DNA of 62,934 bases, counting the filler, from Sluysia triapertura (Eukaryota), in NCBI GenBank assembly GCA_046118255.1. It is 5 parts of 5 records of this genome, joined end to end, with 100 filler letters (N's around TTAATTAATTAA, not from the genome) between each part and the next. Parts side by side here need not be neighbours in the genome. Positions count along the whole stretch, not along the records: positions 12,668 to 25,191 come from JBJNIA010101545.1; 4 more parts are not named here. One strand, 5' to 3'. This document shows, one piece after another, positions 3,130 to 59,014 of the stretch. The position numbers were made by a program, and so were the translations under genes. The notes below the pieces were generated by a model that saw nothing but the letters and a program-made list of their open reading frames with translations, was not told the DNA's origin and did no database searches. Every line of letters begins with the position of its first letter. Position 1 is the first letter of the stretch.

Positions 3130-3679
3130 CGTACGATAATTATTATTATCATTAGTAATATAAACGTAACATTATTTTTTAAATCTTGAGATCATATAAT
3201 CATCTACAGTAAAATATAATTTTTAAAATCTTAAATCGTTAAATCAACTAACTGAGAAAACAGTTAGTTTATGCAACTTAATTATGGGTTATTTATTCAT
3301 TTTATTTTATTTATTAATTGCTTCACTAATTTATATAGCTTTAAATTATATTAAACTATTACATTCAATTGATTTCAAAAAACTAGAATTTAATTCTAGG
3401 AAGTAAAATCTTTTCAACGATTCCGTATAAAGGAATCCATGCAAAATTAATAACTAATTTCTATTCTTTATTTAATTTTGAATTTGTAACTTAAATTATT
3501 AAGATTTTTAACGTAGCAAAGATATAAAATTCACCTCCAGATAGAAGAACTTTATTGACATATTTTCTCCAAAAACTTATCTTGCAAAAATGCAACAGCT
3601 GGTCCTAGCAGGTAAGTCCAATGCGTTGGTGAACTCACATATTTAACTTACTTTATTCTATTTGCATACTTTTCTCACA
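3130..3679 (+). mobile_element. Solo LTR related to the LTR of retroelement 1
   Basis: 3370-3679 aligns by eye to the reverse complement of 24575-24850 (CTAGAATTTAATTCTAG; CCTAGCAGGTAAGT; CGTTGGTG.ACTCACAT; TTTTCTCACA end). Left boundary approximate. Confidence 0.75.
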
Positions 3680-4462
3680 TTACCAAACTTGTCTGGATTT
3701 AATATTTCCTAATTAATTTTCTAATTAAAAAGTGAATTTATCTTTTGATCACTTAAATTGTAATTTAAATTGATAAGTGATTTCTAAATATATGTATTCT
3801 TAAATTAATTTTTCCATCTACATTTCCATCTTCTTCGACATTATCTACATTTTCGTACGTATTTTCTTTGTCTTCATTGCTTATTTTGTATGTCTAAAAA
3901 ATTTAAAGAAAATAACAATTCTTATTTTTATTTCCATTTTTGGCCTTGCTCACCATCATCGAAAAATCAATTTAATAAAAAAATCAAAATTACTTTTATA
4001 TATTTTTGATTTCTGAAATATTTTCTTTGTCGACGACTTTCCAAAAATTAAATTATTTCCTATATGTTTATATGCATTCATTTCTTCTGCCACTTCACAC
4101 TAAATAATAATTATATTGAGTACTATTAAATGATAAAATAGCATCTTTCCATAATACATGATTTTGTAACTTTCAACTTAACAAATAATAATTTATCATT
4201 AAGATCAAGATAATCAGTTTCTGATGTTTATATTTTAAATTATGTATCACCATCATCATTATTTGTTCTGTTGATGAATAAATCTCTTCGAAAGCTGTAT
4301 TTTGTAAAACAAAAATATATAATTTAGTTTTTACACAACTCATTATTTATTATTAAATATGGTTCGTTCATTTTTCGTTTATAGTTTTAACAACTTTTAC
4401 ATGTTTCTTACTCGTTTCTTACTCAAAAGTAATATAAATAAAAATATATTTGTATGATGCAG

Positions 4463-8039: not shown

Positions 8040-9130
8040 TTTAAAATCCCTTAAAAACAGGTAAAATAGTAATGATAATAATAATCACGTTAACAATATT
8101 AAAATAATAAATGAAAATAACAAAATTATAAAATGTCCCTAACAAGAGCATGGATCTTCTTAATGCTGCAAATCTTTTTGTGTCTTGTGAATGTGTTGTA
8201 AAAATTAAAAATTTGTATTTACACTCTTTCATCATCCAAAAATCCCAAGTCTCACAATCAATCACTCTTTCACATAAATTATTCAAACCTCTTTGAGAAT
8301 CAAACCGACAATAACAACTTCTACAATTATATCGTACAATTATATCAAACTTCATTAGGTACAAAACATAGAAATTTGATTTATTATCAACCATCATTTC
8401 CTTTTACTCTACTCAATCTATTTTACTTAAATTACTTCTCGCATTAAAATAACAATCAATAATATTATTAACATACATAAAAATAAAGAAACTAATTTCA
8501 CTTTTTAGAATTTAATTGATTTTCGATTTTTCAAACCCAGTTTTCTAATGAAAAATGTTCTAATGAAATTGTTCTTATTCTCAAACAAACTATTTACAAA
8601 CATTTCGAACTCATTTATAGATTCTCCTCGTTCGTAGCAATCGTCGCATATTCCATTGATTACATTTGCATCACTCTACGCATAAAAAATTCAACATTCC
8701 ATAAGTAAAAATTAATTAAAATTTGCCTTTGCTCAGTATTAAGGCTTTCCTTGTCATGAACTCGGTCAAACCATACGTTCATCGAAAAATGTTTTCAAAA
8801 CAAGTACATACAGTTTCAAATTTAACGTGGCATTCCGCATTCACAAGTTATTCACAAAAACGTAATTTTTCTTAATTAAGTTAATTACGATTTTAATTAA
8901 TTAATCTATTTTTAGATTTAATTTTATTTTATGTTTCAAGGTTTTATTGAGGTTCCAAGGTTATTTAGTAATTTATAAGGTACTCAGGAGGCTCTAGATG
9001 TTGTCACCTTCACATCTTTGATTCCTTTTCTACTTCTTTATGTTAATTATTACCATATTAAACTTATCTTTATTATTTTAAACAAAAATTTTATTTTTCA
9101 AACATTTTAAAGATTTTGTCCACTTTTATA
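8040..9130 (+). repeat. Copy of 2-kb solo-LTR-like family X
   Basis: Shares CATGGATCTTC, TTCTTAATTAAGTTAATTA.GATTTTAATTAAT and TGATTCCTTTT.TACTT blocks with 36705-38160 and 51326-53325. Confidence 0.8.
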
Positions 9131-9162
9131 CTATTAATCTTAATAATTGTTTTCACTTAGTT

Positions 9163-9237
9163 TTTACAGGTACGCCATTAGTAAGTTGCATACTGTAAAC
9201 GGAGTCAGAATAATAATTTAATTTGCTGCGAGTTAGA
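9163..9237 (+). repeat. About 75-bp dispersed repeat (possible DNA transposon terminus), copy 1
   Basis: TTTTTACAGGTACGCCATTAGTAAGT...ATACTGTAAACGGA.TCAGAATAATAATTTA also occurs at 33837-33912. Confidence 0.75.
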
Positions 9238-12199
9238 CTCTTCTATTAAGCACATGTTATATTCTTATAATTTTATTGTTTACACTTTTTATTATCATGA
9301 ACTAGTTAAATTTTGTTTTTGCGCAGGATAGATCTGTAAAGTAATAATAAAAATAATTTTTATATTTTTAACATAATATTTGTGTGTAATAATTTTTATC
9401 TGTCAAGTAATAATAACGATATTTAAATACTTGTTTTTAGAAAAGAATTAATTATTGCATTTAGATTATTTTTGTTTAAAATATTTATTTTTAGATTACT
9501 TTATGGATAATTTTCGGAAGATTTAATTAGTTTATGAAAAAATTATAATGTAACGAACTTTTGAAAGATAATCCTTTTAAAAAGAGTATTAAAAACAGGA
9601 TTTGTAATAAAATCGTACTACAACGATGACAAAGAACAAGAGAAAAAACACGGGCAGATATAATTTGGATTTCTGAGGTCATTTTATCAATCAACTGTCA
9701 CTTACAGCGTCTATTATTACTATTTGATATCAAAAAATCAGAAGACATTTTCGAAAAACAATTCTTTCCACGAATACGTAAGATTATTTTGTTATGTTTC
9801 ATCCCTTTTTAATGGAAGGACTAATACATTAAAATCATACAAATTTAAGGCTATTTTAATCGTAGCTTTAAACTATTAATGAAATCATCATTTGGTATTA
9901 AGAAAAATTTATCAAGTATTATTTTATTATTATAACATTTTCTTGCTGTATTTTTATAATTGTATCTATTGTAACTTTATAGATTTACATATTTGAGTTT
10001 ATTGGAGAAATTATAATATAATACGAGTTGATCCCACATTTTGTAAATTAAACCTTAAAGCTTTGAAAGAGGAATAACTTTTCCTCTTTCATTTGTTACG
10101 CAAAAATCCTATAGACCATCTTTTCTTATGGAATATAAATCGACTTTCATAGGTGAACTTATCCTCAGATAAACTATTTTGTTAAGTGTTTACAATTAAA
10201 ATAGCTAGTAGAGGCTGAAAGATAAAGCTGAATTTACATTTGGAATTTATAAATATTCAAACAGAAAAACTTGCAGATTAAAACATCACAAAAATAATTT
10301 TATTGTGCTCGTAAGTAATACAGAAGTAAATTTATTTTAATAAAAACATTGACTTTAAGCTCAATCCAATTTAAATACGGGGTGGGAGTTGAAATAAACT
10401 CTCTACATTCGACAAAATTAGGCATTCAGATTGAAATAAAGATGAGTCAAAGTTTGAAATTTAATTATTTCAAAGTAGCAAGTGATAACTTATGTTACAA
10501 AGTAAAGTTTAATAACGACTTCTTTTCAAACATAAGATCATGCTTAGTTAATGCTTAATATTAAAAAAATAGGAGAGTCCTTTGCGTTGTACATGTACGT
10601 ATTGATAGAGTTTTGCCTTCACACATTAAGTATTCCTAAATTACACCAAGCATGTTCTCATCAATGTATGAAAATAATGAAATATAATGACAATTACTTC
10701 ATAAGAAAAACCGACATTATTCATCTTATGAAACTATTAAGTAATATACATAAGGCACATTCAAATTCAATAATTACCAAATTTCATTCCTAAAATGTTT
10801 ATCAACTACACAAAAATGCCTAATTTTAAATTACTAAAATTATTCAGAGTAAGATTACCTCCAAAAAATGTTTAATTAATTTACTAAGTAGTTCATGTTA
10901 TTCCAGTTTTATTATAATGTGACTAATTATATTTTTTGTATTTTAATCACTTACTACTTAAATTAGTAACTTACTAAAAATAAAGCAAAATAAAGGCGCA
11001 GCATAATCTGTAAAATATTCAAGGATAATACAAAAAAGTAAATTAATCACTTTTTGAATAACCTTATTCAACTTTAACTCCAGCACTACAATAATTACAT
11101 GTTTATGTATAAATATAAAAATAGCTTCTGTAATAAAAATTTTTTATTCTTTTGCAATATTGTAAACAAAATTTGGTGTCGCCGTAGCAGCGATAATATA
11201 TTTATATTTGGCTGTGACTGGTTGCTAAGGGCTAAACATGCTGACTAAAGAAACGAAGTATTTTGTTTTTGCTTAGTGACTTAATTGAATCAACATTTCA
11301 AAAATTAATTAGATTTAATTCGTGAATTTATAAATTTGTAAATTTAACTTTATGTGATTAAATGTAAAATTCTCTTTGCTTCTCTTTATTTATCTTTTAT
11401 ATAGAATTTTGAGTGTGTCTAAATATTGTTTAATATTTCATAAATCTTGTACGTACTTGAAAAATTTTTGTCTTCTATTACAAACTTAAACGTTTGATAA
11501 AATATTCTAAACTGATAGGTTAATGCTATCGCGTTGTATTAAACTTAACTGGAGGTATGAATTATTATACTCGTCCTCGTTGTTCAGGATAGAAGTGCTC
11601 AATAATAACTTTTTAACTCTTCAAATATTAATTTATTCTAAATTTTATTAAATCCTTCGGTAATTACTTATTCCTTGTTTAATTGTTTTAATATGATTAA
11701 CGAGCTCTAATATCAACCCCTTTAATTAACTAAAAGCTAAAACATGCGCGACAAATATTTAGCTCAAGTAAAATTTAAAAATATGTAATTCTACTAAATC
11801 AAGGTAGTTAAGGTTATTAATTTTATTAAACTTGTTAATTATTACAAACATAATCAATATACTTATATTACTAAATTTTATGAATTCTTAATCTTAATTT
11901 ATTACTTTAACATTAGCTAAATAATTAAAAGTAAAACACAAAATGTTAAAAATTTAGTATTAAGTTATAGGGTTATTCATTTTTATATTAACTAATATTC
12001 ATTTTTATATCAATAGAGTTAAAAAAATGTTTCAAAAATTAAATCAGACTTAGCTAAAAAATGAATTCTGTTCAATGTAAATATGTAAGTTAAAAGTATT
12101 AAAACTGTGAGTATCTTAAACATTTAAATAGTTTTCTACTGGTTTGTATGAATTTTATTAAAGATGTGCAGTTTTAAAACTTTCAAAGATAAAAACATA

Positions 12200-12567: not shown

Positions 12568-12667
12568 NNNNNNNNNNNNNNNNNNNNNNNNNNNNNNNNN
12601 NNNNNNNNNNNTTAATTAATTAANNNNNNNNNNNNNNNNNNNNNNNNNNNNNNNNNNNNNNNNNNNN
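12568..12667. other. Assembly gap/linker N44-TTAATTAATTAA-N44
   Basis: Identical 100-nt linker with six-frame stops occurs four times. Confidence 0.98.
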
Positions 12668-13028: not shown

Positions 13029-13469
13029 TCATAATGATAAATAGTCGGTGGTTATTGATGTTTTTAGAGTTGTAGAAAATCCTCGAAAAGCAAGTGGTTT
13101 AGTCAGAATTTTGTGTTTCTGTGCCAATATCAATTTTGAGTTATGTTTCATTTTATATTCGAATTCCAAAATGAGTGTAACTTGAAATAATTGATACTCA
13201 AATAAGTCTTCACATGATATTATCCAGTAAAAAACGTGTCGATTAATGTGAAAGTCGTTTTGACACCAACTTTGAAGACAAAATTTCATAGTAACATTAA
13301 CTATTTTTGCACTGCTTAGATTGATAGTAGCATAAATATCCTTTTGACCTGATTCTAGAGTAATTCGAGGTTGGTTATTCTTTGATATCCTATCATATGA
13401 GTATTTTTTGGTAACGCTTGCATATCCGAAATATATGTTAAACAGATACAAGCCACTAAAGTAGATCAT
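13029..13469 (-). CDS. Putative secreted/membrane accessory protein, unknown function
   Basis: 146 aa ORF with hydrophobic signal-like N-terminus (MIYFSGLYLFNIYFGYA), several Cys and N-glycosylation sequons; overlaps the stop of the upstream ORF. Confidence 0.4.
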   Translation of the reverse strand: MIYFSGLYLFNIYFGYASVTKKYSYDRISKNNQPRITLESGQKDIYATINLSSAKIVNVTMKFCLQSWCQNDFHINRHVFYWIISCEDLFEYQLFQVTLILEFEYKMKHNSKLILAQKHKILTKPLAFRGFSTTLKTSITTDYLSL

Positions 13470-14085
13470 AAATTCGTTAGTTGCATTCCGTTAAACGCAA
13501 ATGTATAATATCCTTCTATATCATTTTCGTATGTAAGGGAAGGTGATAGTAGTATCCCTAGTGGTGGATTAAAGTCAAATTGATGTGATGTAGTATAATG
13601 ATCATCAATGTCCTTATGAGATGATATATTCGAAAAAGAACATTTATTCATGATGAATTTTGCGATTAAAACAAATATAAAAATTAATGCAATTACTATC
13701 ATTATCGTTAATATGTAATCATTTCTAAACATGTCAAATATTGTCGGGGTGTTTTTTGTACCTCTTAAAGCAAAATGTAAACGTTCGATTTTCTTAGATG
13801 ACAAATAAATTCGTGCTATGATGTATCGTTCCTCATTAGCTAGAAAGTCCGAATATATTGTGTATGGATTTACTAAAGTATTCATACGATATTCGGAAAT
13901 AATCCAAGTGCTAAAATTGATTCGAGCCGGACGTAGACATGATAATTGAATTCGAATATTACTATACAATAACTTAACTTTCAAATCTGCATCTTAGTTA
14001 TAAAATTCGAAACACTCAAATTTGTAATGTTGACTGTTACATTGTGCAACTGAAATTATCGTTAACAATACTATGGGTAATAAAT
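13466..14085 (-). pseudogene. Putative type I membrane accessory protein (paralog 2)
   Basis: Signal-like LLPIVLLTIISVAQC upstream (one in-frame stop), then CLRPARINFSTW...EERYII...LHFALRG domain and TM segment YILTIMIVIALIFIFVLIAKF. Confidence 0.55.
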
Positions 14086-14906
14086 TATGTTTAATCTTAT
14101 GAGTTCTCGAAAGATTACTATATGCAATAACATTCACTATAGTCCCTATATTACAGCGAATAATGTCAGCATAATAAATAATCCATTTACTAGTTTTTCG
14201 GTCTGTTTTTCTAATGATACTTTCCTAAATGCAGCTGTATTAAATGTTGAATTATACAGTTCGTTTTTAAATCTAATTTCCCATTGTTAAGTGAATATTA
14301 ATGTGTCATATGACTGAATGACTGAATTGATTACCCACATTGATTTTATTGACTTTTATTACAAATTGATCACACATATGGTATTGATTTTATTTTTTGA
14401 TTTTTATTACAAAATTTTATGATTTTTGAAATAATTATTTATTCAAATTTTATCTAGGTAAGACTTTATTATATTGTTTATAATTTTTGCATGTGGTGTT
14501 GACATGGTACAAGATTCTGAATGAAAATAATACAGATAAAAAAATGAAATGATACATGAAAATATATAAAACAATACGTTAGTTTAATTTTTATATTAAA
14601 TTTTTTTAATTTTAGTTACAATATCTTATATGAATTTAGGAATAAAAAGAATTCTTAACTATGATTTTTCTTAATAAATGGATTAATTGTTTTGATCTTT
14701 TTGTATAATCCTGCTCTTTTATAGAGGCGTCTTATTTGACGATGACGTCTATTATGCTTCTGGGACTTTGACAACCCAGAAGGATAGTTAACAGGTGGTA
14801 TCTCTATTAAATGTTTTTTTACGTTTTTCCTTAAGGTATTATGGGTACGTGATTACTACTTCTTGCATTTCAATGCAGTGATCCAGTAAATATGATGGAA
14901 TTTTCT

Positions 14907-15116
14907 CTAAAGTATATAAATGTTGGAATTTCCCCTTATAAAAATGTGGATTTCCTCTACAAGTGTCCTACACAATGGGCAGTTCATATATTCTGTAGTA
15001 GTAAAATGGAAAAGATTGATTATACATTTGAAATGAAATTTATGAGAACAAGGATGTGCTTTTATGTAATGTTTATGTATAGAGTGTTGGCATATTGGAC
15101 ATCGATGGAAATACAT
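14907..15116 (-). CDS. RING-H2 (C3H2C3) zinc finger protein, putative E3 ubiquitin ligase
   Basis: CPIC-x13-CSHKFHFKC-x14-CPLC; polypyrimidine acceptor TTTTATCTTCTTTTTCAG lies 3 nt before the ATG. Confidence 0.85.
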   Translation of the reverse strand: MYFHRCPICQHSIHKHYIKAHPCSHKFHFKCIINLFHFTTTEYMNCPLCRTLVEEIHIFIRGNSNIYIL

Positions 15117-15389
15117 TGTCTGAAAAAGAAGATAAAAACATAATAAGGTAATAATATTTTAAAGTTAATTAGTTAATTAATTAACATAATAAATTATGAT
15201 CCTAATTTATGTACACGCTAAAAACTACGAGAGATATTAAACATTATTTATGTAAAGTTAGGTGACCGGTTGGACAGAAATAAAACCGTCAACATCGATC
15301 ACTCGTAACTTTTCTATATATATTGTTTAATCCTATACTTTAATTGTATGTGTCAATCTACGAGGTATTCCTATATACTTTTTATGGCT

Positions 15390-15725
15390 TCAGTCGATTC
15401 TTTAATTCCCTGTGTAGCGAAGTGAAGCTGCTTAATAATTTTAGCCTGATGTTGGATGAATATTATTATATATCTATCTTCTGATAATAAATAGTCTTTA
15501 CAAATTGTTACTGGGTATTCCGTGTTTGGTAAGACATGTATTTGTAATTCTCATATACTAAAATTGAGTCTTGCTGGGTTGATACATATATAATGTGCCT
15601 TAATATTCTTAGTTACCATAATTTGAACTTCTGTGTCGAAATTATAAAAATCCAAGTATTATGATTTGTAAATTCTCTGTGATATCCGTAATTGATATCA
15701 ATGTTAGTAAGGTGAGTAGCATCAT
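15390..15725 (-). pseudogene. Disrupted paralog 1 of the membrane accessory protein
   Basis: Manual translation MMLLTLLTLISIT...CINPARLNFSI*...NTEYPVTICKDYLLSEDRYIIIFIQHQAKIIKQLHFATQG aligns with ORF 13466-13984. Confidence 0.7.
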
Positions 15726-15814: not shown

Positions 15815-16312
15815 TTATAAAACATTTTGTATTTCTAACTTTTTCTTACTTACATCCTTACTTATTTTCTTACTTATATTCTTATTTAATTCGGTAGTAG
15901 TATTCGTGACTCGGTTCGTTGTAGTGGGTAATATTGTACTTACTGTTTTATTTATATACTTTTTCTTAAAAATGTTCATGAAATCTATTGTTACTGACGC
16001 CATTATCGTGGTGTATTGAATAGAGTGCTCACATTTGAAAATATCATGTATCACAGAAGGTTTCTTTATTATTAATGGCTCAAAATATATGCAATACATA
16101 TCAAAATTATAATCAGGAATCTCGTTTTTGTTATCAATTTCAGCGGTCCAAAAACTAATGAATGTATTTGAAGGAAAGAGGTTTTGTTTAATATTGGTGT
16201 AGCTTGTTAAATTTACTGAATAATTCGTCATCATAGTTGTCAATTGAAATAGAAATAGCATAAAAGTTATTATATAAAGATATTTATTATTTGCGATTGT
16301 TCTTATAAACAT
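15815..16312 (-). CDS. Putative membrane-anchored/secreted glycoprotein, unknown function
   Basis: 165 aa; hydrophobic N-terminal segment, multiple NxS/T sequons, Thr-rich stalk; hydrophobic TM-like stretch just downstream of the stop. Confidence 0.45.
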   Translation of the reverse strand: MFIRTIANNKYLYIITFMLFLFQLTTMMTNYSVNLTSYTNIKQNLFPSNTFISFWTAEIDNKNEIPDYNFDMYCIYFEPLIIKKPSVIHDIFKCEHSIQYTTIMASVTIDFMNIFKKKYINKTVSTILPTTTNRVTNTTTELNKNISKKISKDVSKKKLEIQNVL

Positions 16313-16529
16313 TATACTGCTATCACTATTGCTAATACTAATACTATTATCAGTATTATTATTATCATTATTATTATCTGATCCGATACCTGAAGTTCAA
16401 GAAACCGTGGTATCCCACCAATCGAGATTTTCCTAATTTGGCGTTGGTGATGGTGGTAATACTTGATTTAATGGAGCAATTTGATAATTTTGCGGTTGTA
16501 CTGCGGTACTGTTCTTGGCATCGGAGGTA

Positions 16530-16865
16530 AAACTAATTGTGCCTAGAGATATTTTAAGAAATCCTAATCTTCCGTGTATTACTATATTTTCTAATTTACT
16601 TAATGCATCCATTCCTAATATAATATCTTATGGGCATCTTTCCCAAACTAGTATTGTTTTAAATAGATCTACATCTAAGATTGTTAGTTGACATTGTAAT
16701 AGAATATGTGAGCCGTCTAGTGCAAATAATTGTATTCCTGCTTGTTTTAACATTAACTTCTAAAGCATTCAGTACATTATAATTAATAATAGTATTATTC
16801 GAACCTGTATCTATGACTGCTAGTACCCATCTCTGATTGAACTTAATAATCTGAACTAGATGGTT
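16530..16865 (-). pseudogene. Retropepsin-type aspartic protease (frameshifted), 3' of integrase
   Basis: Manual translation IKFNQRWVLAVIDTGSNNTII (DTG at about 16803-16811) ... CP*DIILGMDALSKL (about 16590-16630): both the catalytic and the C-terminal ILG.D motifs are present. Confidence 0.88.
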
Positions 16866-17950
16866 TGTATGTTAAAAGAAGAAGTTACACTTTTTGTAAC
16901 TTTCCTATCTCTTAAATTATATTCATTATTATGTGCCAATTTGCATCGATTTACATGCACGACAAAAGTTTCTGCATTCACATAATTAGGTTTATTTATA
17001 TATAAATTAGTGGAAGTTGTTTTCATCACTTCATAAAGTCCTTTAAATGGTTTGTGTAGTTTTGGAGAATATCCTGGTTTCGCTATTGGATAGTCTACCA
17101 ATACTTTATCTGATTTGCTTTTTGTCATAATTATCTTTATAAATTTCCTGAGTGTAATGTATTTGTAATCCAGCGCGTTTCCATATCTTGTAAATTCTCT
17201 CTCATAATAATAACATATTCAGGAGTTTCCATGTATTGAGATGAAGGTGGAATCCAGTCTAAATCTATTGGCATGTTTGAGTGTCTGCCGTACATAAGAT
17301 AGAATGGTGTAAAATTAGTAGCAGGATGTACTGAGCTTCCATACGCAAATAAGCATGGTGATATATATAAATTTCAATCTTTCTGTCTTTCGTTTACATA
17401 TGATTGTAGCATATTTATTAATATTCTATTAAATCTTTTTACCAATCCATCGGTCTGTGGCTGATACGATGATGTATATATTTTTAAAATCTTAAATATA
17501 TTTGCAACAGATATTATCGCATCACTAGTAAAATTGGTTCCCTGGTCAGTTAATAATTTTTTTGGAGTTGCGTATCTATATATATTACTTTTTCTACTAA
17601 TATTTGAGCTACAGTTTAAGCTTTTTGATTAGGTATTGGATATGTTTCTGGTCATTTTGTTAAATAATCAGCGAATATTATTATATATTTATTTCCATTT
17701 ATTGTTTCTGGCAATGGTCCCATTATATCCATTGCGGTGAATTCCGTTTAAAATAGTGGTATTGGCATAGGTCTTAATGATACAACATATAGCGCAATTC
17801 TTACACCATTCTTTAATATCTTCTTCCATTCTATCCCAATAATATTTATTTTTAATTCTTGATAATGTTTTTCTTGTTGATAAGTGTCCGCCTAATTATC
17901 CATCATGGTAGTGAATTAATAGTGGTGTTATTAAAGATTTTGGTACAATT
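16856..17950 (-). pseudogene. Integrase (HHCC, DDE core, GPY/F-like C-terminus)
   Basis: HYHDG*LGGHL...WCKNCAIC; AMDIMGPLP; LLTDQGTNF; YQPQTDGLV; TPFYLMYGR; KPFKGLYEV; stops and frameshifts present. Confidence 0.93.
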
Positions 17951-19550
17951 GTTTTCCATTCATCCTTTGAATCTCTAAAGTGTAATATACCATCTGTTAT
18001 TGATAACTTTTTAGCTTGATCTTCATTTAATAATCCCCTCACCATTGCTTCAAAAGCATATGACATTTCTTCATCTTCTCTTTGAAGTTTTATTATTTCT
18101 TTTGGCTCTTCAGATTTTCCCGAAGTTGGCATTATTTGAATAAAATTTATATTTTCTTTTTCATCATGATTTGTTAATTTTATATTTCCATCTTCATCAG
18201 TATTTGTTAATCTTGACATACAATCCGCTCCATTGTTCATTGAAAGTGGTTTATATATTATTTGTAAATCAAATTCTGCTAGCTTTGTGAACAATCTATT
18301 TAATCTACTAACTTCATCTCTATGATTGTATAAATATGTTAATGGTTTATGATCCGTATATAAAAGCACTTTCCGTCCCAATAAATAGTGTCTGAATAAT
18401 TTGCGTGCATAGACAATTGCTAAACATTCTTTTTTAATTGTTGAATAATTTAATTCAGCTTTATTTAGTCTCCTACTTGTATATGCTATTTTTTATATGC
18501 TAAATTTTATATGCTAAATTTTCTTTATTCCTTTGTCCCAGAATCGCTCCTATTGCAAAGTTACTAGCATCTGTTGTTAGTTTAAATGGTTTATTCATAT
18601 CTGGAAATATTAATACTGGTGCGGTTGTTAATCTTTTCTTTAATTCCATAAACGCTTTTGTTTGTTCTTCAGTCCATTTAAATGTTACATTCTTTTGTGT
18701 TAGCATCCTTAGTGGTCTAGCTATCTTCGCAAAATCTTTCACAAATCTTCTATAATAATTGGCTAATCCTAGAAAACTTTTAACTTTCTTAACATTATCT
18801 GGTGGTGGATATTTAACAACTTTTTCTATACTTTTAGGATTTGGTTTTATATCTGTGTGTGAAACTTTGTGTCCTAAAAAGTCAACTTGTTCTTCTGCCC
18901 ATACACATTTAGTCGGTTTAATCTTCAGTCTTGCTACTTCAAGTCTTTTGAGTGTATTATCTATATCTACAACGGAGTATCAAAATCCTTAGAAAAAATT
19001 ATTATGTCATCAATGTAAACCATTACATTCTTACAACCGGACAGTACGAAATTCATACATCTTTGAAATGTTGCCAGTGCACCTGTTAATCCAAACGGCA
19101 TTTTTTCACATTCATATAATTCATCTCCCACGAAAATGCTGTTTTTTGTTTATCTTTTTCGGCTATCTCGATTTGCCAATAACCACTCTGCAAATATTTA
19201 GCATTTTCTAGTTTATCTAACATTTAATCAATTCTTGGTAATGGAAATACATCTTTTCTTGTAATTTTGTTCAATTCTCTGAAGTCGATACAAAATCTCA
19301 TAGCTGTATCTTTTTTCTTAACTAGTAATACTGGTGACGAGAATGGAGAAAAGCTTGGTATAATTACTCCGGCCTTTTTCATTGTATCTATTTGATTTTT
19401 CATCTCTTGTTGATTGCATAATGGAATTCTGTAAGGCTTCTTTCTAATTACTTTATCTTCTATTAATGGAATTTCATGTTTCTTTATGACGGAATTTCCA
19501 ATATCATATTTATTTCTTGCAATTGCCCAAGGATATCTGTACATAATTTT
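17950..19550 (-). pseudogene. Reverse transcriptase and RNase H (Ty3/gypsy type)
   Basis: [48 protein letters not shown] (about 19003-19020), TTDASNFAIGAIL, LYTDHKPL, ADCMSR. Confidence 0.95.
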
Positions 19551-21035
19551 ATATAATGTCGTGCCAAGCTGCTTGAATATCTTCATTAGAATAGATTCCT
19601 GATTTTGGAATGTTCTTTGTAGTAGAAAATTTTAATTTTGTTTTTAATTCTGTTAAACCTATAATTTCCCGTGTTTTAACTTGACTTCGATGTGGTAGAG
19701 ATATCCAAAGATTATCATCGATTTTATATTCTGGAGCCATTACATTAGAGCAGTGTAGTGTTTTCGGTTTAAGTCTATTAGCTGGAATAATAATTCTCGT
19801 AACTGGTTCTAAATAAGTATTTATATATTACCGGTAATTCATTAGTACATTCGCTTTCTTGTCTAATTTGTACTTTCACTTCTCCCATCAACCTACCAAA
19901 TACTCCTTCTTCTGGGTTAGTTATTGCTACAGCTAATTTAGTTCTCAATATTTCTTTATTTAATTGACACTCTATCGCTATCATGGCTTGATAAACTTTT
20001 TCTAGTGACATCAGTCCTAAATGACAATAAAATTCAATTTTGTTATTAAAATACGTGTTTAATTGTAGATTCTTTGTATCTAATCCTTTTTTAACTTGTA
20101 ATATTGTCTTTTCTGATAGATATATTCCTTGATAGTTTGTTTCTATGATTTCTTGTCCACATCGAACTACTAGTTTTTTTGATAAAAAATTTTTCCATCT
20201 TCTTTCTTATTTGCCATTAGAATTGTTGGAGTTTCAATTTCATGAAGTCTTTTCCTTTCAGGTATATCTAAATTATCTTTATAAATTTGCTTTTTATTTA
20301 TTTCTTCTACTGCTAATTCATCTTCATTTTGATACATAAATCCCGAAATTAAATTAAACTTAATTTGTTTTAAGAATATTAATGAGCAGTGATATTTTTC
20401 CAATTCATATATTAGTATTGATTCACCAGAGTCACAACTTGTTTGATCGCTCCTGCAAAATGGTCTAGACATCATAGTACCTTTTTCTAAATTAAAACTT
20501 TCGTTAAAACATTTTAAACTTACTACATGTGTTTCTTGAGCTACTACGTTGTGATAAATCTTTCCTTCATATTCTATTGATCCTCTTTCGCAAGTACTGT
20601 CGATTAATACATCACCAGATGTTCTAATTTTGTAAATTATTTTCTCGTTATTTTTAATTCTTAATTTATCTCCTTTGTTTAAGCTTATGTATCCAGTTCC
20701 AAATGTATCATGACAATTGTTCGGCGATATTTTAAAGGTTTTAATATGTTCGATATATCGATAATTGAAGAGTGACTGTGATGTCCACAATACCATATTA
20801 CTGCAGATCTTTTAACTAAACATTCTCTAACTAATGTCGTAATAGATTTCCTTCTTGATAAACATTTAATACTTTCATATCTTTTATTTTGACTCTATTT
20901 GGTCTTGATTCAGGAAAATCTTCGGTATCTTATAAAGAGAACTTTCTTCCAATTTGGGGTTGGCTACAATCAAAAGCTTTTAGCATTAGTTTTATTAAAT
21001 CCGAATAATGCCAATAAAACAATTAAAAATAACAT
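19550..21035 (-). pseudogene. env-like viral fusion glycoprotein, chuvirus/Jingchuvirales-like; C-terminally truncated
   Basis: Signal peptide MLFLIVLLALFGF, KAFDC..., [65 protein letters not shown]: motif series I recall from chuviral-type glycoproteins. Confidence 0.75.
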
Positions 21036-21080
21036 ATTATTTATTGAAGTTACAAATTGAATGATCCATTTGTACTTCCC

Positions 21081-21127: not shown

Positions 21128-21223
21128 TAGTCGGGTTATCGTGTTAAGTGGTTCATTTAAAATATTCTTTAAGTCCTTTATAATATTTTTCCATCCTCCT
21201 AAGTTTTCAATTAGAGTACCTAA

Positions 21224-23100
21224 TTACTTATCAGTAAAGTTTATAACCTTGTCTATTTTTTCTTTAGTTAAGAGTGTCGCTTTATTACATTGAAATATTA
21301 TGTAAGCCATTATTATTTTAAGTCTATCTCTATTGATTCCAGCATTAATTTGTTTGTTTAATATATTTTTATATTGACCATTATCTATAAAGTCACTTAA
21401 ATCCGTATTCTTATATTTTTCTTCCATAACTTTAATTATCTTGATTAATGCAGCTTTGTATTCCTTTAATTCAGGTAAAAGTGTTTTATACTTATCAAAG
21501 TTAGAAAATTTATTAGATAATAATGCGTAAATTATAGTTTTCGTACTTAAGGTTTATTCTATATTCTTGTAAGTAATTTTGGTTAAATCAATAGGTTTTC
21601 TATGTATTGGGGTTGGTATTACTGTTTCATCATCATTATCCTTAATTTTTCTAGGTCTACCTGGTTTTCTTTTAAAAGTGTTTGTTTCTTTATCTTCAGT
21701 TTCAATATGTGGATTTTTATTTAAATCTCTTACGTAATCGGGTTTATCTTCAGTATAATCATCATTGTCATTGATTATATCTATAATTTTACTTTCATTA
21801 ACTTTATTATTATTTTTATCATAATTGTCTTCCATTAATTCTCGTAGTAATGAACGTGGAGTTCTATCTAAATCAACATCGTTGTCATCATTTATTAATT
21901 CATCCAATTTTCTTAGATCATCGGAAGGCTTAGTGTGCGCCATTATAACTGCGGAAGTCATTGATGCTTCCTCATGGTTTCCATTCATTGATGGATAACC
22001 GTAAACATTTATATAATCATTAAGTAATAGTTTTCTGTCATAAAAATATAAATCAACATCATTAATATTAGAGCCATTTGACTTGAGTAATTCTATAATA
22101 TCTTTAGTAATTGAAGTAACGGGAAGTTCCATATAATATTCAAAGAGTTATTAATAATTATACTTATTCTCATTAGTTCTTTAGGGATATGTTTTCTTTC
22201 TTTTTGTCCTAATTTTCTTAATAATTTTCTTGCCTTAATCTTATATAAACTATCTTCTTTACCTAAAATAGCTAATACTAATTTTATATCATGTCCATTT
22301 TGTATACTTAATTCCGATTTTAATAAATCATTTAGATTTTCATTTAAGTCTTTGCCATGTGTTATATTAGATAAAAATTCTTCAACTTTTTGATTAACTT
22401 CTTTAGTTTCTGGGGTATTTATTTTATCATTAGCAGTTATTATTATTGATTCCGTCTCTTCTATTTCCATATCTTCTGTTGTATTTCTTCATAATCTGTT
22501 TTATTAAATATATTTTCTACTTCTTGGTCATCACTAAGTTCATTATTTGGTTGTTTTTCTTCTTGATTTGATTCTTCTTCGGTTGAACTTGATTCTATAT
22601 TTGATTTTTCCTCTATTGGAATCGATTCTGTATTTGATTCTTCTTCTATTTCATCATTACTTTCTACTGACTTATCTAAATTTGGTTTCTTCATCTTTCC
22701 TTCCCATTTGTCAATTAATTCTTGAATACTTTTATCTTCATTTGATATTACTTCTTTTATCTATTTTATTTGTTCATACTTTCCTCTGAAGGTTGTTCTA
22801 ATAATTCTCGAATTTTAACCTGAATTGGTTGGATGGTTAATCTATTTTCTTCTTTTTCTCGTTGTTCTCTTCTTTGTTTATCTTTTTGAAATTTTAAATA
22901 TCTATCATACATATAACTCATAAAAATTTCGTTTTCTTGTTTATTTTTAAATCTATTTTTTTCACAATCCAATCCAGTGATATAGAATACTCGTAACATT
23001 GCATTCTTTTCTTCATCTGAAATTAATTTAAGATATTTATCATCTTCTTCATCACTACTCGTCTCCCTTCTTCTTGGTTGTCTTCTGCTTCTGTTATCTT
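21224..23100 (-). pseudogene. Long acidic/charged ORF2 or gag extension with AT-hook
   Basis: Contiguous frameshifted ORFs 22766-22999, 22461-22694, 22093-22470, 21554-22132 and 21224-21427; E/D/K-rich; KRKPGRPRK at about 21650-21675. Confidence 0.6.
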
Positions 23101-24091
23101 CTGATTAACTTCCTACAATCTCTTGCATAATGTCCTTTCTTATTACAGTTGTCACAGATTAATTCTCCATCGATATTTGTTTGAGTCTTATTATTATTTT
23201 CATATCTTGTTGGACTTTTACTTCTATTCCTATTGAAACTAGAACTTGGTGGCCATCTCGGTGCTGGTCTCTGTTCATAATTAGAAGCAGCATAATTACT
23301 TGCTCTATTATTTTGGAATCCTCTATTATTATTATTTCCTTTATAATTGTTTGAGCTACCCCTGTAATTGTTTGAATTACCTCAAAAATTTCTGTAATTA
23401 GCATTGCCTCTATAATTATTTGAATTTCAATTATTATTATTGCCTCTACGTGGGCTATTATGTCGGTCCTGACTGTAGTTACCATCATTATATTCTTCAT
23501 AATTTCGTGAGTTAGATTTATTATCATTATAATTATTTCTTGTTAATTTCGGGATTTTGTCTCCCTTTTCTTCATTGTCGCTTATGTAATCAATATTATT
23601 CTTATTTTTTTATGCATAATTGAGAGTTCAATGCTCCTTAATATTTTAATTACTTCTTTAAAAGGTTTTCCTTCTATTAAGTTAACATAAGTTATTAATT
23701 CAGGTCGTAATCCAGTTTTTAATTTATCTTTCAATGTTAATTCTCTGTTACCATCTGGAATTTTGGCTCTAGCAACAAGGCTTTTAAGAGCGCAAGCACA
23801 TTCATATACAGATTCATTAGGTTTTTGTACTTTAGTATTGAGCATTTTTGCATAATATTTACCCATATCATCAAGGGCTATCTCTTCTGTAAATGTATTA
23901 ACGAATTCGTTCAATGTTTGTTTATTATTATCACTTATTTCTTTTATTTTCTCGGCTTCATTCCAGCCGTTAGCTTCTGCTATACTTTCGTATTCAAGTA
24001 AGAAATCTCAGAGATCTTCTTCTGCTCCGTCAACTTTTTTCATTTCAAGTAAAGACATTATTGGATGCATTTCTCTGTCTAATTGTGCCAT
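23100..24091 (-). pseudogene. gag (capsid-like plus CCHC zinc knuckle)
   Basis: MAQLD...DFLLEYESIAEANGW; KVQKPNESVYE...LKTGLRPEL; CDNCNKKGHYARDC at about 23115-23157. Confidence 0.9.
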
Positions 24092-24548
24092 ATATTCTTT
24101 AAATTCATTAGGTAAAACCATATAATTCCTTAATTTTGATCTGTAATCTTCTGAAAAAACAATTTGCTTATCTATTTTTCTTAAAGTTTACTAAATCTAT
24201 CAATAATCAACTTAGGGAGTAATAATTTTACATAAATTTATCTTAGTCTTAATACAATTATTCCAAAAATGCTTAATTCTTAATTTTAATTCTCAAATTA
24301 ATCTCTACTTAAATAATAATCCTTAAATTCTTCTTAACTACTTAATTCTTATATGAGTTATTGCAAAATTCCTTTAAATTAGTTAATTCGCCTTAAATTC
24401 TTCTTAATTCCTCTAAAAATCTTATTTCTTTCTTATATTATTTCGATACTGGTCCTCAAATTCAATTCTATAGCAAAATTCTTCTTAATCAGAATTCCTA
24501 AAAATCTTATATCTTATACTTATTTATGTTATTTATATTGTTGCAATT

Positions 24549-24564: not shown

Positions 24565-24574
24565 GTTTATTCTA

Positions 24575-25191
24575 TGTGAGAAAAGTGAAGCAAATAGAAT
24601 AGAATATAAGTATGTGAGTCCACCAACGTGCTGTACTTACCTGCTAGGGCCAGACGTTGGATTTCTTATAAGTGTCAAAGAAAAATTTAGTTTTTTCGTT
24701 AATGTCTCTTGTCTGAAGGTAGATATTTTAAAGATTTTAATTTGAGTTATTAAATAATTTGAGTTAGTTATATATTTTACGAATGATTTCCTTGTATGGA
24801 ATCAATAAATGAAAATTTACTTTCTAGAATTAAATTCTAGATTTTTTGAAAACTGTAAATACTGGTATTTTAATAGATTCTATAACTATTCAAGTTGAAA
24901 AGATCTTAATACGAAAAATTCCTTTATTATGCACAAAAATGTAAAAATTATACAAATACAGTTGATAATAATGATAAAAAAATTTACTTTAATTAACTAT
25001 TGTTAGTCAATTATCCTTAATTCAAGTTTATACATAATTTATGCATTGCGTTTATGCATTGCGGACAAATGGTTGGTAATTAGTCTATGTAAATATTATA
25101 AAATAATTAATATGATTATGTTGGGGTAAAAGGCCTAAAAAGTTCCAAGTAGTATAATTGAATATATTGAAAATGAAATTGTTAGACGGGG
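24575..25191 (-). repeat. 5' LTR of retroelement 1 (distal end uncertain)
   Basis: Ends in CA next to the PBS; homologous to the solo copy at 3130-3679; contains CAG|GTAAGT at 24635-24643. Confidence 0.75.
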
Positions 25192-25291
25192 NNNNNNNNN
25201 NNNNNNNNNNNNNNNNNNNNNNNNNNNNNNNNNNNTTAATTAATTAANNNNNNNNNNNNNNNNNNNNNNNNNNNNNNNNNNNNNNNNNNNN
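25192..25291. other. Assembly gap/linker
   Basis: N44-TTAATTAATTAA-N44. Confidence 0.98.
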
Positions 25292-36100: not shown

Positions 36101-36200
36101 NNNNNNNNNNNNNNNNNNNNNNNNNNNNNNNNNNNNNNNNNNNNTTAATTAATTAANNNNNNNNNNNNNNNNNNNNNNNNNNNNNNNNNNNNNNNNNNNN
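36101..36200. other. Assembly gap/linker
   Basis: N44-TTAATTAATTAA-N44. Confidence 0.98.
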
Positions 36201-36704
36201 GAACCATTTTACAAACATTTTGAGTTCACTTATGGATTCTCCTTTTTCATAGCAATCATCTCATATTCCATTCATCTAACTTTCGAATGCGGAATTCTAC
36301 GTTAAATTTGAAACTGTATTTTTTCGAAAATACCTTTCAATGAAGGTATGGTTCGACCAAGTTCATGCAAGGAAAGCCTTAATATTCAGCAAAGTCAAAT
36401 TTTAATTATGGAATGTTGAATTTTTTATACTTAGAATGATGCAAATGTAATGAATTGAATGTAAGATGATTGGTTTGGATGAAGAGAATCTCTAGAAGTA
36501 AGTTTTAATTGTCAGACATTTTCACAAAGAAATTGGGTGTGAAAATTGAAAATCAATTAGATTCTGAAAACTAAAATTATATTTTTTATGTATGTTAACA
36601 ATAATAATGATTATTATATTAATGTGAGAATTAATTTAAGTAAAAGTCGATTGAGTAGAATAAGAGAAAATGACAGCTGATTATAAATCAAATTTTTGTG
36701 TTTT
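36201..36704 (-). repeat. Inverted partial copy of family X
   Basis: Reverse complement of 8360-8840 (e.g. GTTCATG.CAAGGAAAGCCTTAATA). Confidence 0.8.
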
Positions 36705-39977: not shown

Positions 39978-40397
39978 TTAGTCTTTTTGTTGTTTATGTG
40001 AAGATGTTGGATCAAAAAAATAAGTTTTTATTAACAAGTTTTTAAAAAATATACCCGCAATACCATGAACTTCTTCGCGTTTAATTTCCACATCGTCTGT
40101 TGGTACAGTAGTATGAGTAAGTCGTACTGGATCATAAACCGCTTGTGAAATGTGTACTCGACCAGGCTGAACTGACGGTTCCATTGTATTAGCAATTATG
40201 ACATCGTTTGGGTAAGCATCAATTCTGAATCGTACTTTACCGATAATGGCACGATTAACACGACCAGTATGAATACTGACACGCATATTAACATTTGGTA
40301 ACTTGTGAAGCAAGAATGACATGTTAAATGCTTTATTGTACTGTATTTTTGATCTAACATTTAGCAGAGCAATTTCACCTTTAAAACTGGTTTCCAT
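39978..40397 (-). pseudogene. Class III adenylyl/guanylyl cyclase catalytic domain fragment
   Basis: NMRVSIHTGRV..AIIG..RFRIDAYPNDVIIANTMEPSVQPGRVHISQ; N-terminal half missing. Confidence 0.85.
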
Positions 40398-40399
40398 AT

Positions 40400-54499: not shown

Positions 54500-57341
54500 A
54501 GCTCTAACAGTTATAACCCAGCCACTGTCTGACCAAAAGTTAAAAATGTTCCCCATATCATTTTCATTTCATATCGTTTTCCAAATAACCCGCTGATAAT
54601 AACCTTTCATAATTTGGTTTGTCGCCTGCATCTCCTATGGAAGTTTCTACTATTTCAGTCAAAATTCTGTTATAAATATTTTCTAGCATCATCCATAGCT
54701 TTTTTATCATATAGATTACTCTTCATTAAATCCTGAATGCAATCAAAGTGTAGGTTGTTTTGTAAATTTGTAATTTCTAGATTTCTCGGTGGCGATTTGG
54801 GTATCAATGATGGAACGACGACCCATGTTGTCTCTGATAATTTATATGCTGGAGCAAATAAAGGTGAACATTTAATTTTAAATGCTTTTGATATAACCAG
54901 TAGTAATAATCTTGTAACCTGTTCCATATAAATAACTTCATTTTTATAAATAACTGGTTATTATGAGTACATTCGTTAGTACAATTAAGATAAACATAAA
55001 CTTTTTTACAAGCGAAAGTTTGTAATAATTCATCCATTAGTCTACTAAAAATTATTTTACCTAATTGAATCTGGAGTGGCCATACTAAGATTAGTCACAA
55101 TCAGTGTCATTTTTGTATGTATTATTTCACAGTTTAGTTTACAATCATTAATAATTATTTCTCTATAAAGATCTTCTATTTGCCTTAATTGATGATGATA
55201 TGAAAAGTCCGCTTTATTGTTAAAATAAATTAACATCCTTATGCAACAAATGAAAATTAGACTGCTTTCCTTTACTTTTAATTACAAATATTTTATCATA
55301 ATTAATAATGTAAACTAACGGACCGCATTTTTTAATCTTACATTATCTTATTAACCTAATCTCAATTAACACAACTTGTGTATTTGTTTCTACTAATGTT
55401 TCTTCTTTATATTTTAAATTTTTACATTATTATCATTATTCATAATGTTGATGTTGATATTATTTTTGTTTTGAATGTATTTGTTGAATCACACTGAATA
55501 TATTTATTGATTTTTTATAGTATGAAATATTTATTTGTTGATTTTCAATATTAATTCGGTTTGGATTTATAATTGGAAAATTATAATTTTATGTGAGTAA
55601 TTTATTTTTATTATTAACAGAAATTATAAAATTAAAAAATTATTGTTAAACTGAATTTATAAAATCAGAGAATTAATAGAAATTTTAAAATTAAAATATA
55701 TTAAACAGTATCTAATTGCAGAATTTATAAAAATTAAAATTTCAATAATAATTTGTTTTAAAGAACCGTCCAAGGTCAAACTTAAATTAATATATAAAGA
55801 TGACATTTTCGTATAAAACTACTTAACTTTTAATTTGAACAAAACAATTTTTAATTGTATCTTTCAAAAAATTCGTGGAGCTGACCATTGGACGTTACTT
55901 ATAGAGAAATAACATTGCAATTAATTATTCGTTAGTTTGTTTTTGATAAGTTAGTACCTTTAAGTGTGCACCGTAAAATCAATGTAAATTATCTATATAC
56001 ATTTGCAGAACCATTTACAATTTCTTTCGTAAAATAATTACTAAAATTGCTTTTTTATATTATTGCATGATCTTTCAGTATTTTAATATTTACCTTTTGC
56101 GTTATATTATAAACTTTCGTATTAAAGTTTTATTGTTAATAACGAATTTCATTATCAGTTCTGTTTAAAATAATTGTAAGTAAATTTTACAATTTTAAAA
56201 TATTAAAATCTGTACTTATAGCATATTTCACCGATATTTATCGGAAAGTGTAAATTCACTTAATATAAATCCTATTTAAAAGGATTTTCGTAAAATACCA
56301 ATTATTAAATAACCTTTTCTCAGATTAATTTTAGATGAAGATTAATTTACATTTAATTTAAATATAATTAATTTAAGATTAATAATATTTAAAGGATTCT
56401 TGTAAAATCACAGTTTATTAACCCTCATTAAGAGAGATAGTCAATTATTCCATTAAACTTTAATGAAATACATTAACTTACTAAGAACCAAGGAATAAAT
56501 TTGACTACGAAGCTTATAAATCTAATAAACAAATTTATTGACCTCCTATAGTTATCTTGTTTTAAGATACGTTGGTGAACTCACATTCACATCTTTATTC
56601 TGAGAAAAATAAAATAAAAACCTCGCAATAACATCATGAGCAGATGAAAATATTTTTCCTTTAATTGTATCAATAATGACTGTTTTAAGGTAAACTAGAC
56701 TACATTCACGATTTCCAAATCAAAAACAATAGTATATTTTCCACCGAAACTTGTTTTTAGTTCTAATTTGCAAAATGATCTTTCTAGCATAGCTTTTGTA
56801 TTCGGGTCAAATGCTACTTCAGTATTCTTAATTTCAGTAGTGTAAGTATCAATAACTAATGCTTTTCGAATCTTATTATGACAAAATTTTCCACATTCGC
56901 GGGTATCTTCATACAACAAACTTCCTACTACAAATATTTCTTCTTATACTGTAATACCTGGTTTTGCTTTCAGAATTATTTTAGAGTCCATTTTACTTCA
57001 TGAGTGTGAAAAGCATTATAACAATTTTTTAGTGTAATTTCAAGATATTCTTCTATTATAGACTATTTAATCAATGAAATATGGCTATTATATCAACACC
57101 ATCTAATATATCTCTTTCTAGAGACTGCACATTCATATGCTTTAATATAAATATATCCTCTTTCTTAATAAATATGATAAATCTGATCGTATTGTTTAAT
57201 AAATTTATTTGGATATGCATCAGGACATTTTTCTACATCCATTAATGAAAATTTTGCTCCGAGTGTTGTATTTTCACAATCAAATGCCTTAATAGATTGT
57301 GCAACAGGCAATACTAAAATTGTCATAAAATGTGCCAACAT
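54500..57341 (-). pseudogene. Chuvirus-like fusion glycoprotein of element 2 (interrupted at 55446-56633)
   Basis: MLAHFMTILVLPVAQSIKAFDCENTTLGAKFSLMDVEKCP; ECAVSRKRYIRWC*YNSHIS; DCKLNCEII; CKKVYVYLNCTNEC; KCSPLFAPAYKLSETTW; SNLYDKKAMDDAR; WGTFLTFGQTVAG. Confidence 0.78.
55446..56633 (+). mobile_element. Solo-LTR-like insertion in the glycoprotein gene
   Basis: TGTTG...ATAACA termini; flanks TCATAA/TCATGA; contains CGTTGGTGAACTCACAT, also found in the solo LTR at about 3624. Confidence 0.6.
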
Positions 57342-58209
57342 TGTATTCGTCTCTTATAACCGTTGGTTCAATTTTGACATTTTTATCTATGTTTTATATT
57401 ATTGTCAATACCGTTTAAATTGGCATCAACTTTACTTTCCGCTTTGACAATACTAATATTTTTTTGAAAACCACTTGATTTTACGTTAGATATATTATTT
57501 ATCTGATTGTGCTTAGTAACCACACTCAATTATATTTTCATTGTCATTAATATAATCATTTTTTAATACTAATATTATATCACTATTTAATAAGTTGAAT
57601 AACGTAAGAGTAAGAGAAATTAATTCTTTATCTTAATTCTTTATTTATTGGAACCTCTACCGCATGATTATTATCTTCATATGAAAGTATAAGAGGTAAT
57701 GTTGTCTTATTTTTATTCAACCAATATCTTTCTACTTCAAGTAAACGTTATGAATGTAAACAGTACGATTTAGAAAAATTCACGTTATTCTGTAAAAATT
57801 ATTCACTATTACTTATAGCATCAATTGGTACTATGTTTAGATACTCGAATGTGTCTCCAATATTCGTGTGCTTATTATTAATTAATTCAGTAATAACTTT
57901 AACGTCATCAATATTCTCGATATGTACTTCATCATTAATTACTTCTTGTTCTTTTTCATTCTGATTAATGTAATCAGAAGATAATACAAAACGATTGCGC
58001 TAGTCAATCTTGTCATCTTGAGGTACTTCCTCCTTTAAAATTTTCTTTTGTAATTTTAAAGTCATTTCCTCTATTACTTATTTTAAATTTCTATTTTCTT
58101 CATTAATTGAATCCACTTGGATACACAATACTTGAGAAACTTGACTTTTACCACGTTTTTGATTATTTTTGTTTCCTGAATTACTTCTGCTTCTATCTTT
58201 ATTAGCACG

Positions 58210-59014
58210 TAAATTTCGACACCAAAAATTATATTTATTATGGCCTGTCTTATTTCAAATTGTACATGATTCACTTGTAAATCGTACTTCATTTTGTTGC
58301 CTTAGACTATTATGCTGATTTCGCCTGTTATATCTAATAAACTGTGTATTCTGTCGAAAAAATTTTAACATTTATATCATTGTTAAAATGTATATAATCA
58401 GAAAAATTATTATACTTAAAATTACTACGATTGTTAGAAAATTTATTCATTTGTCCATCTATATTTGTTCGAATTATAGGTTCAATAGCCATCACATTGG
58501 ACTGGAGCGAAATTCCTGTTACACTCTCTATATTTGAATTGATCATCTAAATTAGTTAAATCTAATATCAAAAGTTGTGTCATTATTGGTTTCTTACATA
58601 CATCAATACATTTTTCAGTAATTAACTCATTTTTCTGCTAATGAGTAAAATGGGATATGCCTTATTTGCTAATCGTTTTAAGTCAAATAAAAATTGTGTG
58701 ACGGTTTCTTTACTATTTTGTATCTTGTTTCGAAAGTTTTTAAAATTAACTAATTTAGAGTCTCTAAGAAAAATTGACTTCTAAATTTTTTCAAGCATTT
58801 TTATTTTCGTCCTAGATATTTAAGTAAGCCTCAATCGATTTTCCTTTTAAATAGGGTGAAAAGTCTACATTGAGCATCCTCATCCCAGCCAAAGTTGATA
58901 TTGATTCATAAAATTTGTTAAAGCTTCTGGATTACCGTCGAAAGATTCCAATAGAAGAACGAAAGATCTCATAGATTCAGTATTCATTTCCTTTTTAATT
59001 CCAGTCTGTTGCAT
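58210..59014 (-). pseudogene. gag of element 2
   Basis: ESFDGNPE..F...GW; RNKIQNSKETVTQF..DLKRLANKAYP; degenerate knuckle CTI*NKTGHNKYNF at about 58225-58270. Confidence 0.8.

Follow-up and report, generated by a model that had tools for sequence, protein, structure and literature searches.

A retropepsin behind the integrase of a decayed Burro/GYPSM1-like Ty3/gypsy retroelement and in part of its clade

The standard description of LTR retroelements and retroviruses gives them a single protease for all polyprotein processing. The domain order is PR-RT-RH-INT in Ty3/gypsy elements (protease, PR; reverse transcriptase, RT; RNase H, RH; integrase, INT) and PR-INT-RT-RH in both Ty1/copia and Gmr1-like elements, the Gmr1-like order also being seen here in loci such as L013 and L017. 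Burro/GYPSM1, a giant Ty3/gypsy element of dugesiid planarians, has one huge ORF that contains gag, CCHC knuckles, ubiquitin/SUMO-like and Bcl-2-like domains, a mononegavirus-like env in frame between gag and pol, and PR, RT, RH, IN and ankyrin repeats (PMC6431247). These domains recur in the copy described here or in its relatives. The available text of that study names only one Burro/GYPSM1 protease, upstream of RT, and mentions neither a membrane protein nor a protease behind the integrase. It gives polyprotein sizes of 4,873-5,140 aa, compared with single open frames of about 2,600-4,100 aa in the intact relatives, where LTRs were not seen and the MATH and BIR domains of Burro/GYPSM1 (PMC6431247) were not found. 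Burro/GYPSM1 elements are giant, with over 20 kb of internal sequence and 5-kb LTRs, and the match to them is one of layout, no named Burro sequence being among the search matches.

GAG-ENV-POL errantiviruses with an HSV/gB-type env are known from Platyhelminthes, Bryozoa and Nematoda and share with this clade an env between gag and pol and a Chuviridae-like fusogen (PMC13524379). Their available description mentions a protease once, for the standard Pol, and only chromodomains behind the integrase (PMC13524379). The accessible parts of four further studies (PMC12440569, PMC11410931, PMC8532177, PMC10561763) hold nothing bearing on extra proteases, and no report of a post-integrase or multiplied protease was found in the text of the literature searched. 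What appears to be new here is a Burro-like clade with multiple retropepsins, one of them often behind the integrase; the core layout was already known.

A broken element with a protease behind its integrase

The window (the whole stretch of DNA analyzed, 62,934 nt from Sluysia triapertura) consists of five contigs joined by N spacers (12568-12667, 25192-25291, 36101-36200, 48792-48891). The host element, a decayed Burro/GYPSM1-like Ty3/gypsy retroelement, lies on the minus strand of a 12.5-kb contig (12669-25191) that ends short of any second LTR. All of its genes are broken, and their order from 5' to 3' is gag, Bcl-2-like domain, chuvirus-type env, RT, RH, INT, PR and membrane-protein-like ORFs. 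The features of this element, and a second element on another contig, are as follows:

23097..24150, minus: gag with CCHC zinc knuckle (zf-CCHC, E 1.8e-5)
21173..21493, minus: weak Bcl-2-like domain between gag and env (relatives' profile, iE 0.003)
19552..21044, minus: Chuvirus/Monjiviricetes-type (gB-like) env (PF24664, E 8e-12 to 8e-6)
19551..19567, minus: deletion junction, env ectodomain against RT (alignment to six intact relatives)
18970..19560, minus: RT and last helix of the pre-RT linker (RVT_1, E 1.7e-8; tblastn to 19556-19583)
17896..18979, minus: end of RT, RNase H and linker (Pfam RT_RNaseH, E 1.3e-23)
17140..17895, minus: fragmented H2C2 zinc finger and catalytic core of the integrase (Integrase_H2C2, E 2e-14; rve, E 0.004; tblastn)
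16860..17218, minus: C-terminal part of the integrase with NRC and a YxLR motif at its end; the protease is one frameshift away
16550..16860, minus: retropepsin 3' of integrase (DTG at 16811, GMD at 16615; pre-RT-like sequence)
15815..16396, minus: ORF 3' of the protease (by hydropathy, signal-like hydrophobic stretch at 16273)
14907..15158, minus: RING finger ORF piece (Pfam zf-RING_2, E 1e-7)
13469..15637, minus: twice-repeated module of no assigned family (copies 15637-15395 and from 13993, 40% identical)
50780..58900, minus: another element of this clade, more decayed and on a different contig (env, RT, split RH, H2C2)

The RT-RH-INT order, the gypsy-type RNase H and the H2C2/rve integrase place the element within the Ty3/gypsy group (Metaviridae). 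The capsid part of gag was assigned from its position and by eye, and gag of this copy gave no Pfam gag match. The acidic region 5' of env contains the Bcl-2-like domain, weak but in the place expected of the Burro/GYPSM1-like type: a five-row profile that includes 21173..21493 matches Bcl-xL (E 0.0036) and all 60 matches listed belong to the Bcl-2 family, whereas this stretch alone yielded no Bcl-2 protein by single-sequence search and no Pfam match. A ubiquitin/SUMO-like domain was found in the second element (57602-57507) and in 12 out of 17 relatives, but not in this copy. The env, mononegavirus-like and located between gag and pol as in Burro/GYPSM1 (in frame in the relatives), covers profile positions 57-487 of 653 in four frame pieces (PF24664 match 20894-19552), with a signal-like hydrophobic stretch at 21044 by hydropathy.

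Downstream of the protease, homology of the ORF at 15815..16396 to the C-terminal membrane proteins of the relatives was not detected, and the second copy of the repeated module has a membrane segment (13705) as well as a signal-like stretch (14083). By position, 16396-13469 is the region that corresponds to the relatives' C-terminal membrane-protein segments. Upstream of gag, the leader region (24574-24851) has a 78-82% identical inverted copy at 3373-3680 on another contig, and this repeat is a possible LTR or leader.

The retropepsin behind the integrase is a real feature of a broken copy. The initial annotation had read AVIDTGS...DIILGMDAL as a retropepsin, and minus-strand translation recovers both motifs, in different frames (DTG starting at 16811, GMD at 16615) and with a stop codon near 16630 immediately ahead of DIILG. 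The spacings of 131 nt from the integrase NRC to DTG and of 196 nt from DTG to GMD reveal two frameshifts, the first close to where integrase and protease meet and the second within the protease (near 16750); the protease does follow the integrase C-terminus as annotated, but not by the single frameshift proposed. The two motifs of a clan A2-like retropepsin, D[ST]G and hydrophobic-hydrophobic-G-x-D, are 65 codons apart including the frameshift (about 70 aa in most relatives), and the distance from NRC to D[ST]G is 43.7 codons, compared with 46-75 aa in 13 relatives. The N-terminal half matches Pfam gag-asp_proteas at E 4.6e-4 and, being half a domain, falls short of the curated cut-off. The six-frame profile scan that the initial annotation had suggested was run on the whole window with a protease profile built from relatives only; it detected both halves in order (17.3 and 18.0 bits) and no other match above -3 bits, the best domain in 25 shuffled windows reaching 5.3 bits. 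On this contig no protease-like D[ST]G is present between gag and env, in agreement with the initial annotation, or between env and RT; of the other two D[ST]G strings, one belongs to env and one to a frame over RNase H that is riddled with stops.

This copy has no protease ahead of RT, where its slot is deleted, as had been suspected from the appearance of the env/RT junction. Alignment to six intact relatives breaks off near 19567 for env and starts again near 19556 for RT, with 436-804 aa missing (an estimated 1.3-2.4 kb), including the end of env, the membrane anchor, the pre-RT protease slot and the linker. Run X1 carries this repeat family, and in a comparison of 36,539 contigs with the window the eight longest pieces (8 of about 2,490) end at or below 19559 or start at 19551-19562; none of these eight bridges the junction with 31 letters on both sides. 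Loose letters before 19551 were found in 16 contigs (6 of 244 loose ends listed), and the summed depth, which was not used as copy number, dips at the 19551 junction. Because the junction is a deletion, this copy cannot reveal what its family has before RT; its usual pre-RT protease was likely lost along with the junction.

A profile search of the second element (58900-50780) gave no protease. Compared with the relative P0208, this element lacks about 900 nt from env anchor to RT, and one copy of a dispersed repeat family (8396-9111, 36208-37796, 52272-52957, 60437-60573) occupies the gap that splits its RNase H. Elsewhere in the window, an Ig-like ORF overlaps a guanylate cyclase-like ORF (39978-41179, minus), and an mRNA guanine-N7 methyltransferase domain is repeated in an ORF at 46833-48167 (minus; Pfam E 3e-16, two stretches). 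Such cargo is known from Burro elements. Upstream of the second element lies a MATH/TRAF domain ORF (62231-62722, plus, E 5.5e-18); MATH is named as Burro cargo in the available text of PMC6431247.

Protease number and position in intact relatives

The relatives come from metagenome contigs. A search with the RNase H-integrase frame gave 553 matches, and among the best 120 of these a leading group of 11 was set off from the rest at 341-245 bits; three of these top matches have a protease behind the integrase in the same frame. A cluster mate is a complete 3,735-aa gag-env-PR-PR-RT-RH-INT polyprotein, and 16 of the 120 listed among its 295 long matches were taken, namely those that aligned over 99-100% of the query region with ≥53% identity. 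Further members (P0247, P0248, P0250, P0256 and P0272) came from a profile search that covered 1.84 billion representatives. A word-based search with the integrase-end and protease frame gave no match, which is weak evidence, and the viral collection contained no relative by the integrase-protease alignment and only distant gypsy elements by the clade alignment. Clade members P0002/L003 and P0208 sit in bacterial metagenome-assembled genomes and are probably mis-binned animal DNA.

Excluding P0004 (contained in P0126), the cluster mates of P0001 and three integrase-less proteins, the clade comprises 29 proteins with integrase. A protease directly behind the integrase, within one open frame, is present in 13 of these and missing from the other 16. 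All clade proteins that span env to RT (16/16) carry one or two proteases before RT, including all eight full-length relatives that have a 3' protease, and full-length polyproteins of the clade contain up to three proteases. The order in the relatives is gag, accessory domains, signal peptide, env, membrane anchor, one or two proteases, RT, RH, INT, zero to three proteases and, usually, a signal-like segment, an ectodomain and a membrane segment. The canonical Ty3/gypsy PR-RT-RH-INT core is thus kept in intact relatives, with extra proteases added before and after it. As a control, 164 of 385 proteins had an integrase C-terminal match and 15 had a protease ≤150 aa behind it, all of them in this clade. 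Among 64 loci, a protease lies directly behind the integrase only in L001 and L002 (metagenome DNA), in the order pre-RT protease, RT, RH, INT, protease, degenerate protease, ankyrins and membrane protein; in L008 a protease is located 2.2 kb downstream of the integrase.

The D[ST]G motif is retained in 13 out of 13 post-integrase proteases despite a median pairwise identity of 28%. Between L001 and L002 the post-integrase protease shows dN 0.30 and dS 1.19 (rough values, near saturation), and the extra proteases evolve much faster than RT (dN 0.30 vs 0.047). The closest solved structures to this L001/L002 protease are Ddi1 and ASPRV1 (E 2.7e-6 and 7e-4), which share the D[ST]G and hydrophobic-G-x-D motifs with it; these are cellular single-domain proteases, whereas the L001/L002 proteases are repeated modules in a retroelement polyprotein.

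Retropepsins also occur in tandem, with four in a row in P0250 (1560-2212), three in P0256 (1060-1548) and two in P0272; those of P0250 and P0256 follow env in ORFs that end before any RT. In L001 (3337-4020), L002 (3750-4430) and P0190 (1053-1289) an active protease is followed by about 35 aa, a degenerate copy and then ankyrin repeats. The degenerate copy lacks the catalytic Asp and is still constrained (dN 0.43, dS 2.5, rough values). Such active-plus-inactive pairs could fold as putative single-chain, pepsin-like dimers, a question on which an AlphaFold model of the L002 pair (3 rows; pLDDT 44, pTM 0.34) is uninformative.

In most relatives the region behind the integrase consists of a signal-like segment, a cysteine-bearing ectodomain and a membrane segment. 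By pairwise search these C-terminal regions are of several unrelated types; Ig-domain Pfam entries match the C-termini of P0226 and P0231, and an Atlas search linked the P0001 tail to one unnamed cluster at 0.76, which serves as a lead only. Downstream of the L001 and L002 polyproteins lies an RNase T-type (DEDD) exonuclease ORF (8592-9923, Pfam E 6.5e-9, and 9043-10374, E 1.5e-11), preceded by an ORF that has no Pfam match and looks alike by eye.

Origin of the protease behind the integrase

The RNase H-integrase tree (40 rows, 448 columns) places this copy within the clade (99/98), as a long branch that splits off early, and the patchy distribution of the 3' protease requires five gains or losses; no intact member of this copy's own family was among the sequences found. 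The protease tree (51 rows, 113 columns) has a branch (97/82) with all 27 accessory proteases, whether post-env or post-integrase, on one side, which suggests that they arose by one old duplication followed by shuffling. In the protease phylogeny, a check raised by the initial annotation, the protease of this copy has a long branch and pairs with a pre-RT protease (93/96), yet its placement in the accessory group is not rejected by the AU test (p 0.37). A leave-group-out profile test assigned all 18 pre-RT proteases, and none of 24 others, to the pre-RT class; this copy's 3' protease scores as pre-RT with a margin of +14.4 bits (top margin among the others -0.3) in a comparison where class sizes differ and decay may bias its score. 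Since a canonical-type sequence here occupies the relatives' slot and has no pre-RT linker behind it, the protease is either an independent canonical duplicate in the same slot, an atypical accessory protease or a moved canonical one.

The anatomy of the clade suggests that the retropepsin at 16860-16550 is probably an extra protease and not a sign of a new domain order, the usual pre-RT protease having likely been lost with the junction. The initial annotation had left a choice between a novel order and a second protease; inspection of protease position and number in intact members, as it had advised, favors the second for the clade, because all eight full-length relatives with a 3' protease and all 16 proteins that span env to RT keep the pre-RT one. 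Several observations count against the extra-protease reading: by profile score the protease of this copy falls outside the accessory type seen in the relatives, this copy is a long early branch for which no intact family member was seen, the ORF behind its protease has no homology to the relatives' tails, and the second element of the window is likewise without a pre-RT protease, though other parts of it were lost too.

The same observations bear on a relocation of the canonical protease itself to a position behind the integrase, which would give this lineage a single-protease gag-env-RT-RH-INT-PR layout. The RT-RH-INT-PR order could still apply to this lineage because its 3' protease scores as the canonical type; it also groups with canonical proteases and retains their C-terminal pattern after GMD, and neither this copy nor the second element has another protease. 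However, the pre-RT protease is kept in every full-length relative, the slot that would have to be empty is deleted here, the dUTPase-like linker typical after pre-RT proteases has no match behind the 3' protease, and the AU test does not separate this protease from the accessory group. Relocation is therefore considered unlikely.

A rearrangement in this one copy, or an assembly error, that placed a pre-RT piece behind the integrase would likewise account for a canonical-type sequence next to a deleted pre-RT slot. Ten run X1 contigs have loose letters before 16550, where the protease homology ends, and so some similar proteases continue differently. Against this, a chance landing in the same slot, with nearly the same spacing as in 13 intact relatives and with a signal-like stretch following as it does in them, is unlikely, and this explanation is judged very improbable. 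The chance that the protease belongs to a separate nested element is negligible: no evidence in its support was found and no second gag, RT or terminal repeat surrounds the protease. A nested element, or an absence of the protease from other copies, was what the initial annotation had thought could overturn it; instead, the open frames of intact relatives hold the same in-frame arrangement at the same distance from the integrase, which rules the nested element out.

Possible roles of the extra proteases

In the relatives, extra proteases are always located at borders adjoining membrane segments, or in tandem there. Because the enzyme block lies between the env anchor and a second signal-like segment, we infer that this part of the polyprotein is tethered to the membrane at both ends, with the extra proteases at those borders. 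A 3' protease with putative activity would act as a homodimer with two catalytic Asp residues. A hydrophobic, beta-strand-like motif is visible by eye ahead of the post-integrase proteases, after the integrase YxLR motif, and the 3' protease might cut at a hydrophobic site between YxLR and itself, a proposal held with slightly more doubt than confidence. A cut behind YxLR would free the integrase from the downstream signal anchor. The 3' protease would be a helper at most and not essential, given the 16 of 29 clade members without it; as these still carry a membrane protein behind the integrase, the pre-RT protease can presumably make the cut between integrase and membrane protein too.

The extra proteases may alternatively be cargo with a putative function against host proteins (e.g., in apoptosis or ubiquitin pathways) and not against the polyprotein. 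This would parallel the Bcl-2, ubiquitin-like, ankyrin and RING cargo of these elements, and it fits with proteases that vary in number and place, evolve faster than RT, are patchy on the tree (five changes) and include constrained copies without the catalytic Asp. Their constant location beside membrane segments speaks against it, and a host-directed role, though a genuine alternative, is regarded as rather unlikely. It concerns function only and is compatible with the anatomy of an extra protease.

Division of labor among several proteases of one polyprotein is a strategy better known from RNA viruses, and the origin of two-lobed pepsins from paired retropepsin-like units is an existing hypothesis. 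The envelope-carrying gypsy clade described here keeps two or three proteases in place of the single one usually described, and an accessory protease subfamily appears to move between the env and integrase sides of Pol under purifying selection, which suggests a labor division among retropepsins in a membrane-threaded single polyprotein. The natural tandem retropepsin pairs are relevant to the origin of the two-lobed pepsins, and classifiers based on domain order would mis-annotate elements of this clade. If the canonical protease was in fact relocated, this lineage would have an RT-RH-INT-PR Pol order absent from the literature searched, within a clade that has up to four retropepsins per polyprotein.
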